64,000 nucleotides of DNA from an uncultured Gammaproteobacteria bacterium (GCA_964517685.1 CAZFCF010000001.1:153458-217457); one strand, 5' to 3'; counted from the first letter of the stretch, positions 43,568 through 44,524 are shown. Notes: generated from the letters alone by a model not told the origin. A program made the numbers and translations.

Positions 43568-44524
43568 ATGCAAGATACAACTGATCAAAGCACTAATATC
43601 AAATCTATTTATGGTCCGGTGCATTCGTGGCGCTCAGGGACTTCACTTGGAGTGGATATCATCGGCAATGTGAGCACTTGCAGTTTTAATTGTGTTTATT
43701 GCCAGCTCGGTAAGATCCAAAAAATTACTACTGAGATCAAAACTTATGTGCCCACTGAAAAAATTATTCAAGATCTCATAGAGATGGAAGCGGCTGGAGA
43801 GTTTAATTACAATGATCTTGATGTAATTACTTTTGCAGGGTCAGGTGAGCCGACACTTGCAGAGAACCTTGCTGAGGCTATTACAGCGATCCGTAAACTT
43901 TATCAAGCGCGCGAAAAGCAAGTGCCGATTTCTATTCTGACTAATGCAACGATGCTGAATGATTCGCAAGTGAGAGAGCGAGTTAAGCTTGCTGACTTGG
44001 TTTCATTGAAGCTCGATGCGGTGAATGATGAGATATTGAAAGCTATTAACCAACCAGCTCCTGGTGTAACGATGAGAACAATTATTGATGGTATAAAAAT
44101 TTTGCGTAATGAAATTGATGATGTGGATAAGTTGCAGTTGCAGATTATGATTATGCCGAAGTATTTGGGCGCAGGGGGATTGCTTCGCTTCGCTCGCAAT
44201 GACGGTGGTGATGATTCCGCTCCTCAGGATGACGGCTACCTAAACGACCTCGCTGCGCTAATCGCAGAAACCCAAGTTTCTAAAATTCAAATCAATACTC
44301 CGACTCGTCCTAAACCTGTTTCTAAGACTGGTGAGTATTGGATTGAGACTCGTGGTAATCACTATGGTCCGAATGAAGCGCAAGAAGTGAAGCCAGAATT
44401 TATTGAATTCAAAGAGCTACCTGTTATTAGTCAAGAAGAAGCTTTTAAGGTGGAAGATACCTTGCGAGAGGCTCTTGCTGGCAAGGTTTCAGGGCTTGAG
44501 ATTGTTAATGTGTATAAGAGGTAG
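43568..44524 (+). CDS. radical SAM domain protein, function unknown
   Basis: CSFNCVYC (CxxxCxxC) at residues 39-46, GSGEP glycine-rich SAM motif; carries a 23-aa repeat-encoded insertion. Confidence 0.7.
   Translation: MQDTTDQSTNIKSIYGPVHSWRSGTSLGVDIIGNVSTCSFNCVYCQLGKIQKITTEIKTYVPTEKIIQDLIEMEAAGEFNYNDLDVITFAGSGEPTLAENLAEAITAIRKLYQAREKQVPISILTNATMLNDSQVRERVKLADLVSLKLDAVNDEILKAINQPAPGVTMRTIIDGIKILRNEIDDVDKLQLQIMIMPKYLGAGGLLRFARNDGGDDSAPQDDGYLNDLAALIAETQVSKIQINTPTRPKPVSKTGEYWIETRGNHYGPNEAQEVKPEFIEFKELPVISQEEAFKVEDTLREALAGKVSGLEIVNVYKR
44169..44233. repeat. palindromic repeat inserted in-frame in radical SAM CDS
   Basis: GCGCAGGGGGATTGCTTCGCTTCGCTCGCAATGACGG..CCTCAGGATGACGG encodes GAGGLLRFARNDGGDDSAPQDDG. 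Confidence 0.85.

Follow-up and report, generated by a model that had tools for sequence, protein, structure and literature searches.

The stretch of DNA analysed here (64,000 nt, referred to below as the window) contains an intact gene for a radical SAM enzyme that carries, in frame, an additional segment composed of a short GC-rich hairpin repeat. This segment is most probably (with a probability of roughly 0.85) a selfish repeat that is tolerated in a loop of the enzyme. The main interest of the case lies in the recurrent use of the same loops as hot spots in orthologues and in the conservation of the element ends across phyla. Coordinates refer to the window unless one of the loci collected for comparison (L numbers) is named. 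The features on which the analysis is centred are the following:

43568 to 44524, plus strand: radical SAM host gene, an intact open reading frame (ORF) of 318 aa with a match to PF04055.
44168 to 44236, plus strand: inserted stretch, codons 201 to 223, peptide GAGGLLRFARNDGGDDSAPQDDG, delimited by the alignments with L001 and L003 and by low pLDDT (per-residue model confidence).
44169 to 44204, plus strand: module A, a full short-core copy of the element, GCGCAGGGGGATTGCTTCGCTTCGCTCGCAATGACG, found as repeat-search family D7 and matched by the covariance model R1.
44205 to 44214, plus strand: spacer of 10 nt, GTGGTGATGA, which with the adjoining bases encodes G-G-D-D-S.
44215 to 44236, plus strand: module B, TTCCGCTCCTCAGGATGACGGC, the 3′ half of a copy of the GGATCC...GGATGACGG subfamily.
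43415 to 43545, plus strand: leader array with an A-like copy (43415-43450), a full hairpin (43466-43501) and two 3′-end fragments.

The description of the host as a 318-aa radical SAM protein, as given in the initial annotation of this DNA, was borne out by a Pfam scan, in which the ORF matched PF04055 (Radical_SAM) with 58.8 bits (E = 9.6e-16, cut-off 29.5). The Fe-S cluster motif CxxxCxxC is formed by C38, C42 and C45 and is invariant across the family alignment. No model scored above its cut-off in an NCBIfam scan of the 318-aa protein, and a family profile of the enzyme had no match among the PDB sequences. TYW1/wyosine synthase, the name given to homologues by JGI, was rejected, since the protein scored 19.6 bits with TIGR03972, for which the cut-off is 318. 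A contig look-up for the window's own protein returned no record, and its protein cluster carries no name.

In the host protein, GAGGLLRFARNDGGDDSAPQDDG is preceded by ..QIMIMPKYL and followed by YLNDLAALIAETQ. The repeat nature of the underlying DNA is evident from both of its modules. For the 30-mer of module A, GGGGGATTGCTTCGCTTCGCTCGCAATGAC, four matches with at most three mismatches were found in the window, compared with none in 100 shuffles, and the copy at 52173-52202 is identical to it in 30 of 30 positions. Module B has two matches in the window, compared with none expected, and one of them is at 43481-43502. The covariance model R1, which was built from 26 oriented copies of the element, matched the in-gene copy at 44176-44205 with 35.4 bits (E = 4.6e-7) and gave module B no full-element score. 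The term compound repeat is thus apt, as a full module A is joined to the 3′ half of a module B. The same order, A followed by B, is present in the leader 750 bp upstream, where A is identical in 33 of 35 and the B half in 19 of 20 positions (20-nt gap). With 50-66% GC, the repeats stand out as islands in a window of 30-40% GC.

The insert was originally described as a 65-bp repeat with a length divisible by three. The sequence, the frame, the peptide and the lack of a stop codon were all confirmed; 65 is not a multiple of three, and it is the net gain of 57 nt that preserves the frame. This net gain (19 codons, 23 residues in place of 4) follows from the closest orthologue, P0003/L001 (85.5% nucleotide identity), which has the four-residue linker HDVN at the site and reads KFV-HDVN-YLND without any repeat (empty-site codons AAG TTT GTA CAT GAT GTT AAT TAC TTG). 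Orthologues without the insert, by which the initial annotation proposed to judge the insertion, are also the rule at greater distance: in 20 of 22 farther genome-derived orthologues (L004-L027) the native linker comprises four residues of the x-D-x-x type, and in the remaining two it comprises five. In P0002/L003 (84% nucleotide identity) module A alone occupies the site and is identical to that of the window in 32 of 33 positions, while the leader of L003 is devoid of an array and contains just ..TTATGATGACTAAGACGCG. The synonymous divergence (dS) between the window gene and the L003 gene is 0.62; so close a match of module A in the two genes has P = 0.025 even when the gene's average divergence is assumed. 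The central codons of the insert, GGT GAT GAT TCC (GDDS), resemble the native linker of L011, GGT GAT GAT TCA. GDDS may therefore be the native linker between two separate insertions or the spacer of a single compound insertion with subsequent trimming.

The relatives of the host protein are encoded by metagenome-assembled genomes of Melainabacteria, Vampirovibrionia or Caenarcaniphilales, with 63% identity to the best GTDB representative, and a metagenome scan for near relatives yielded loci of just 51-53% identity. Judging by these relatives of the host gene, the element probably resides in a Melainabacteria-like organism, i.e. a non-photosynthetic relative of the cyanobacteria.

The host gene is under purifying selection and is not a pseudogene, a finding that the initial annotation had named as one that would refute its reading. 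Its ORF is intact, every residue that is invariant in 33 family members is kept, and the ratio of nonsynonymous to synonymous divergence (dN/dS) is 0.13-0.15 in all three pairs among the window, L001 and L003. An AlphaFold2 model calculated with the 33-member family alignment had a mean pLDDT of 87.8 and a predicted TM-score of 0.86, and its nearest solved folds were PFL-activating enzyme, NifB, TYW1, viperin and RlmN. Low confidence was limited to the N-terminus and residues 208-219: the blocks 201-210 and 211-220 had a pLDDT of 52 and 48, compared with 91 and 88 in the neighbouring blocks. In the model, the insert sits between a strand (189-194) with a helix (197-200) on one side and a helix (223-235) on the other, and is accordingly modelled as a loop. 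Of the surface loop originally proposed, the loop is thus supported by the model, and a position at the surface is suggested by its low confidence together with the loop location.

Within the window, R1 recovered its 26 copies and no other strong match, 15 on the plus and 11 on the minus strand, corresponding to about one copy per 2.5 kb. The unit is 27-40 nt long and follows the consensus (T/G)GGAT-NNN-[variable core]-NNN′-ATGAC(G), with conserved ends TGGAT...ATGACG. The outer stem ATTGC/GCAAT is exchanged for ATCGC/GCGAT, ATCGT/ACGAT, ATCC/GGAT or ATTCT/AGAAT in some copies, and the inner stems are unrelated in sequence among copies yet complementary. Covariation was extensive, with 82% of the cells paired, double changes in 8 of 11 pairs and 33 compensatory cells; none of 500 shuffles was as good, and slid registers were paired to 30-45%. 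Where the inner stem is clear (13 copies), the loop on the ATGAC strand reads TTC (9), TAC (2) or TCC (2), so that the other strand has G-N-A. The short-core copies, including the in-gene one, contain GCTTCGC, the complement of GCGAAGC, which we take to be the very stable DNA mini-hairpin d(GCGAAGC). Because of these cores there are hints that the GTCAT strand, as single-stranded DNA, may be the relevant form. In several cases a full copy is followed by a spacer and a 3′-end fragment (CTCAGGATGAC or CTCGCAATGAC), and the in-gene copy is built alike.

Twelve copies form six inverted doublets of the arrangement (GTCAT...ATCC)-spacer-(GGAT...ATGAC) with inverted ends of 11 nt. Two of them were folded as DNA, giving -19.8 and -21.6 kcal/mol (z = -2.6 and -4.6). 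Their positions are:

46937 to 47018: REPIN-like inverted doublet with pairing outer ends GTCATTGCGAG / CTCGCAATGAC, DNA fold of -19.8 kcal/mol, z = -2.6; the left copy provides the C-terminus and stop codon of the ORF 46013-46960.
2543 to 2625, 20905 to 21004, 25857 to 25934, 30818 to 30908 and 33507 to 33608: the other inverted doublets.

The placement of the copies relative to genes is far from random. Only 5 of the 26 copies (19%) are internal to ORFs though coding sequence makes up about 90% of the window (P of about 7e-17 in a binomial test of random placement), 17 lie in the non-coding 10%, and four overlap gene ends. Many intergenic copies begin 1-5 nt past a stop codon. All five interior copies keep the reading frame; besides the one in the radical SAM gene they are:

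11170 to 11205, plus strand: copy in the NTP_transferase gene 10618-11406 (minus strand), read as SSLRGAGGRGNP.
46258 to 46293, minus strand: copy in the ORF 46013-46960 (plus strand), read as RHCEERSDVAIQ.
51681 to 51718, minus strand: copy in the ORF 50951-52057 (minus strand), read as GIATPSSMARND.
7427 to 7456, plus strand: copy in the ORF 5626-8409 (minus strand), read as RHPERSVRIQ.

In the case of the NTP_transferase, the solved homologues 6pd1 and 1jyk have a gap of 15-17 residues opposite the copy, and the orthologous proteins are shorter by about 10 residues. The peptides of the interior copies vary with frame and orientation (LLRFARND, SSLRGAGG, RHCEERSD, GIATPSSMARND). The element ends are open in five of six frames, being read as RND and AMT forward and as VIA, xHC and SLx in reverse, with the CAA TGA frame closed; a unit that preserves the frame is therefore usually free of stops. 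Elements also shape gene ends. They provide the last residues and the stop codon of the seryl-tRNA synthetase gene, the ORF 46013-46960 and a histidine kinase gene, and the histidine kinase ORF 52198-53178 takes its start codon from the ATG of the element sequence GCAATGAC. The elements that overlap gene ends are located at:

52175 to 52204
25905 to 25934
46937 to 46972
53167 to 53208, about 550 nt upstream of the class A bacterial RNase P RNA named below.

Insertion into the radical SAM enzyme is a recurrent event. Internal copies verified with R1 were found in at least 12 radical SAM orthologues, among them L003, L005, L007, L020, L028 and L181-L186; they occur in both orientations, in the loops that precede LQLQIM and follow MPK(F/Y)x, and as many as three units can be stacked (L186). 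Of 115 full-length homologues, at least 17 contain peptides derived from the element, located at core positions 184, 202 or 250, with inserts of up to 56 residues. In the GTDB loci L004-L028 the radical SAM gene accounts for 7.7% of the DNA, yet it holds 4 of 13 R1 matches (P = 0.014). At two other orthologous sites the element variants are not constant: those at the site in the ORF 46013 differ between the window, L001 and L003, and the core variant in the NTP_transferase gene differs between the window and L179, where the element lies directly 3′ of a native GTCAT. Hot spot 1 of L004 (within 10001-10867) reads GATTGCCAGGCTGAC, compared with the full element GATTGCCACGCTGGCGCTCGCAATGAC in L007 1590-1620; the L004 sequence looks like a decayed element remnant that has been assimilated into the coding sequence (LDCQAD). 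The differing core variants and this putative remnant point to a turnover of elements and not to one frozen ancient event. Taken together with the 26 copies in the window and the four other in-frame interior copies, the recurrent colonisation of loops strengthens the reading as a selfish repeat.

As an observation on the surroundings of the host gene, an AbiEii-type toxin gene adjoins the radical SAM gene in several relatives (window 44525-45908; L001 977-2809; L184 2448-3831; L185 67-765 and 1767-2537), and it is accompanied by a gene for a 205-aa partner in the window, L001 and L184. The space between the radical SAM and toxin genes varies: L001 has an additional NTase_sub_bind gene there, and in L003 a Bro-N gene is found instead.

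The course of events that would account for these data involves a non-autonomous, GC-rich, REP/REPIN-like hairpin repeat (REP, repetitive extragenic palindromic sequence; REPIN, the corresponding inverted doublet), one full and one 3′ half unit of which would have been inserted into the four-residue linker after the invariant MPK motif of the radical SAM enzyme. The insert would be translated as a disordered loop rich in Gly, Asp and Arg and would persist as selfish DNA with a neutral or near-neutral effect. Selection would purge nearly all coding insertions, and those in permissive loops would survive, which would explain the repeated hits at the same two or three loops in relatives. As to mobilisation, a trans-acting enzyme of the HUH/RAYT kind might, by analogy with REPINs, move or copy the units in the form of single-stranded DNA hairpins, frequently beside existing copies, a proposal that we consider tentative and put at well below even odds.

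Several results weigh against this reading. In a Pfam scan of the 38 ORFs of the window housekeeping genes were found and no transposase or Y1_Tnp domain, and a crude motif scan (HUH together with Y..NP) of the window and all collected loci (about 2.3 Mb) gave no Y1/HUH protein. Small GIY-YIG nuclease genes accompany repeats of this sort, and such a companion gene was considered and dropped, as none was found in a motif scan of the window or among the clusters of ORFs near elements on viral contigs. A stable hairpin of the in-gene copy was rejected as well (z = +1.5 to +2.1 relative to shuffles). The flanks of 25 in-gene copies share neither a common target nor a target-site duplication; a GATGAC/ATGAC target site, suggested by two empty sites of L003 (the leader, and the gene with the insert removed), is unproven, and no such flank is shared by the 25 copies. 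Since no transposase was found and neither duplication nor flank consensus was seen, the mobilisation step is a conjecture, and tolerance of the loops combined with insertion beside existing copies is the simplest reading of the hot spots. In addition, the tree favoured by dS is ((L001,L003),window), so that module A, being present in the window and in L003, would have been lost cleanly in L001 or gained twice in parallel. Finally, dN/dS is an average that includes the period preceding the insertion and is thus compatible with a recent loss of function.

An origin by local copying from the A+B leader array 750 bp upstream, through template switching or ectopic gene conversion in place of a transposition-type event, is the strongest competitor, if an unlikely one. 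The order, orientation and near-identity of the modules match the array (43415-43502), and such an origin would be in keeping with the failure to find a target duplication, a consensus or a transposase, and with the different core variants at orthologous sites, which suggest conversion-like turnover. However, L003 has module A at the site without a leader array, module A is also identical to the copy at 52173 in 30 of 30 positions, and copying from nearby would by itself leave unexplained why both orientations and unrelated subfamilies are found at the same loops in orthologues. It is improbable that the insert has been co-opted, with the loop or an mRNA or DNA hairpin serving the enzyme or its expression by partner binding, translational pausing or transcript stabilisation. 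The site is two residues past the family-invariant K198, many orthologues retain inserts at the same loops, and the position of many intergenic copies shortly past stop codons is like that of stabilising REPs. A function of this kind is contradicted by the closest relatives, which have no insert or a different one, by the variation of the orthologue inserts in sequence, frame and orientation, due to which the peptide is not conserved, by the lack of a stable hairpin in the in-gene copy and by the disorder of the modelled loop.

That the gene is a young pseudogene, inactivated by the insertion and with stops not yet accumulated, is more doubtful still. The identity of module A to another copy fits a recent event, and the insertion adjoins a conserved motif, in a strand-to-helix loop on that face of the barrel at which radical SAM enzymes bind their substrate. 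Nevertheless, the ORF is intact with the insert exactly in frame, many intact orthologues carry inserts of 11-37 residues at the same site, dN/dS is low in each of the three pairs, and the model is confident outside the insert. Hardly any weight can be given to a native, lineage-specific low-complexity loop or to an assembly artefact. The source is probably a metagenome-assembled genome, in which short repeats can mislead assemblers, but the match of module A to another copy over 30 of 30 nt speaks against a native loop or an artefact. Module A is present at this site in an independent sample too (L003, SRR13608702), three contigs from two sources have the protein on record, and a 65-bp repeat is shorter than typical reads.

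Matches to the element ends were also obtained outside the window. A blastn search of 72,556 plasmids with one copy from the window returned matches of 34-36 nt with 86-94% identity (92-94% for the best three), including plasmids of Methylosinus trichosporium OB3b, Methylocystis rosea, Legionella lytica and Halomonas; Novosphingobium plasmids match too, so that both Alpha- and Gammaproteobacteria are represented. Two of the plasmid loci with elements are:

L085, 2502 to 2585: Methylosinus trichosporium OB3b plasmid pOB3b1, an inverted doublet CGTCATTGCGAGGAGCGAAGCGACGAAGCAATCCAGG...CTGGATTGCTTCGCGTTGCTCGCAATGACGG with R1 scores of 51.2 and 36.6 bits.
L084, 2416 to 2535: Legionella lytica.

The pattern CGTCATTGCGAG-N12-26-GCAATCCAG was found on 93 IMG/VR contigs (L086-L178), and a composition-matched scrambled pattern gave no match. 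The 80 IMG/VR loci that were analysed have a GC content of 38-74% (median 65%) and contain 112 copies with 66 different cores; the ORFs near elements on viral contigs cluster as phage or gene transfer agent-like structural genes only. These matches raise the possibility, for which we would claim less than an even chance, that the element is a member of an undescribed and very widely distributed class of mini hairpins. The ends CGTCAT..ATCCAG may be kept in this class from the 34%-GC Melainabacteria-like genome to Alphaproteobacteria of 65-74% GC, Legionella and environmental viral contigs, and the core stem may vary compensatorily around a G-N-A triloop. A description of the family was not found in full-text literature searches with the DNA strings and the derived peptides; as the coverage of these searches is incomplete, the term undescribed is provisional.

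The initial annotation likened the insert to Rickettsia palindromic elements (RPEs), which, going by the summary that PMC10969869 gives of Ogata et al. 2000, are elements of about 100-150 bp with a conserved peptide of 30-50 residues and are specific to Rickettsia. The likeness is that in both cases palindromic repeats are dispersed over an AT-rich genome and are found in frame in unrelated housekeeping genes, where they are read as an extra peptide compatible with the fold and leave the host gene intact. In contrast to RPEs, the present unit of 27-40 nt is four times smaller, stacks in arrays, occurs in another phylum and is read in at least four combinations of frame and orientation without a conserved peptide. 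The behaviour of an in-frame, fold-compatible selfish repeat was therefore rightly recognised, whereas membership in the RPE family was not sustained: the available RPE descriptions support an element that is RPE-like in behaviour but, because size and host differ and no sequence relation to RPEs is known, is not an RPE.

Greater similarity exists to REPs and REPINs, which are mobilised by RAYT proteins (Y1 HUH transposases, each encoded by a single-copy gene with the same REPs at its flanks), co-evolve with their own RAYT and differ between species (PMC3116915). Common features are imperfect palindromes of 30-40 nt in many copies, mostly extragenic and often just past stops, inverted doublets that form long hairpins, clustering beside existing copies and the absence of a target duplication. 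A RAYT gene was not found in the part of the genome that was covered (38 ORFs of the 64-kb window) or in a motif scan of the collected loci. Unlike in those systems, 19% of the copies are intragenic, and the ends are conserved across phyla and not species-specific. Classical REPs have a GTAG head, whereas the conserved end here is GTCAT/ATGAC. The mobile GC clusters of yeast mitochondria, which include an optional in-frame cluster in VAR1 and for which a different mechanism has been proposed, resemble the element as short GC-rich palindromes in a very AT-rich genome that show presence/absence polymorphism and are sometimes in frame; they belong to a eukaryotic organelle and are unrelated in sequence.

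Small dispersed repeats (SDR) of 21-27 nt (Elhai et al. 2008, cited in PMC5861425 and PMC3116915) are mobile and, according to PMC5861425, reported only in Nostocaceae. Going by these descriptions, they share with the element a very small size, mobility, nested insertion, a hairpin context and, broadly, the phylum. No copies were detected by R1 in the collected loci of Nostoc, Microcystis and other photosynthetic cyanobacteria, and all matches of that scan were in L001-L028. Bacterial MITEs (miniature transposable elements with inverted repeats; ERIC, Correia, BOX) are 100-400 bp long, have terminal inverted repeats, target-site duplications and a parent insertion sequence, and can fuse with ORFs (PMC10969869). 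They are comparable as non-autonomous repeats that give rise to in-frame fusions in host genes, and the doublets alone look MITE-like; the single units of about 35 nt differ from them in lacking a target duplication, and no parent insertion sequence is known.

Further features of the window were recorded alongside this analysis. At the gathering threshold, the Rfam matches in the window were limited to a class A bacterial RNase P RNA (53763-54125, 246 bits) and a tRNA gene (14527-14600), and an E-value threshold added sub-threshold chance matches only, so that no Rfam family corresponds to the element; with these two RNA genes present, the window is regarded as ordinary chromosome. Direct repeats of about 58 nt at 31835-31892 and 33507-33564, consisting of a hairpin element and 27 nt (93% identity over those 27 nt), bracket a cassette-like 1.6-kb segment with genes for an Rnl2-type RNA ligase (31895-32911) and a Pol-beta-type nucleotidyltransferase (33128-33505). 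A repeat of a different kind is a perfect 29-nt inverted repeat (19550-19578 and 19745-19773) around 166 nt, inside which an 82-nt stretch (19609-19690) is 76% identical to 14237-14318, about 210 nt from the tRNA gene. Two adjacent large paralogues (55179-57824 and 58060-60849; 881 and 929 aa) have segments of 70-99% identity and an internal periodic repeat of 36 nt.

The colonisation of enzymes in frame by selfish palindromes has largely been deemed a curiosity of Rickettsia. Here it is carried out by a REP-sized unit of about 35 nt, several genes are hit within 64 kb, and the same loops of one enzyme are hit repeatedly across at least a dozen orthologues. From the orthologues one can read, as from a natural experiment, which loops of the radical SAM fold tolerate 10-50 extra residues, and how repeats create variation in protein length. 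In annotated proteins, LLRFARND, SLRGA.., RHCEERSD.. and VIASEAKQS flag repeat-derived segments. Because of such segments, alignments, domain boundaries and gene calls can go wrong, the latter also where an element provides the start or stop. If the wide distribution holds true, element-rich lineages would have a systematic source of new protein loops with hot spots that recur across orthologues, and the conservation of the ends would imply either that a single conserved machinery (an enzyme of the HUH type or another one) recognises them or that an agent spreads horizontally. Should the conservation of the ends across phyla be confirmed on whole genomes, it would point to a conserved mobilising or binding factor.

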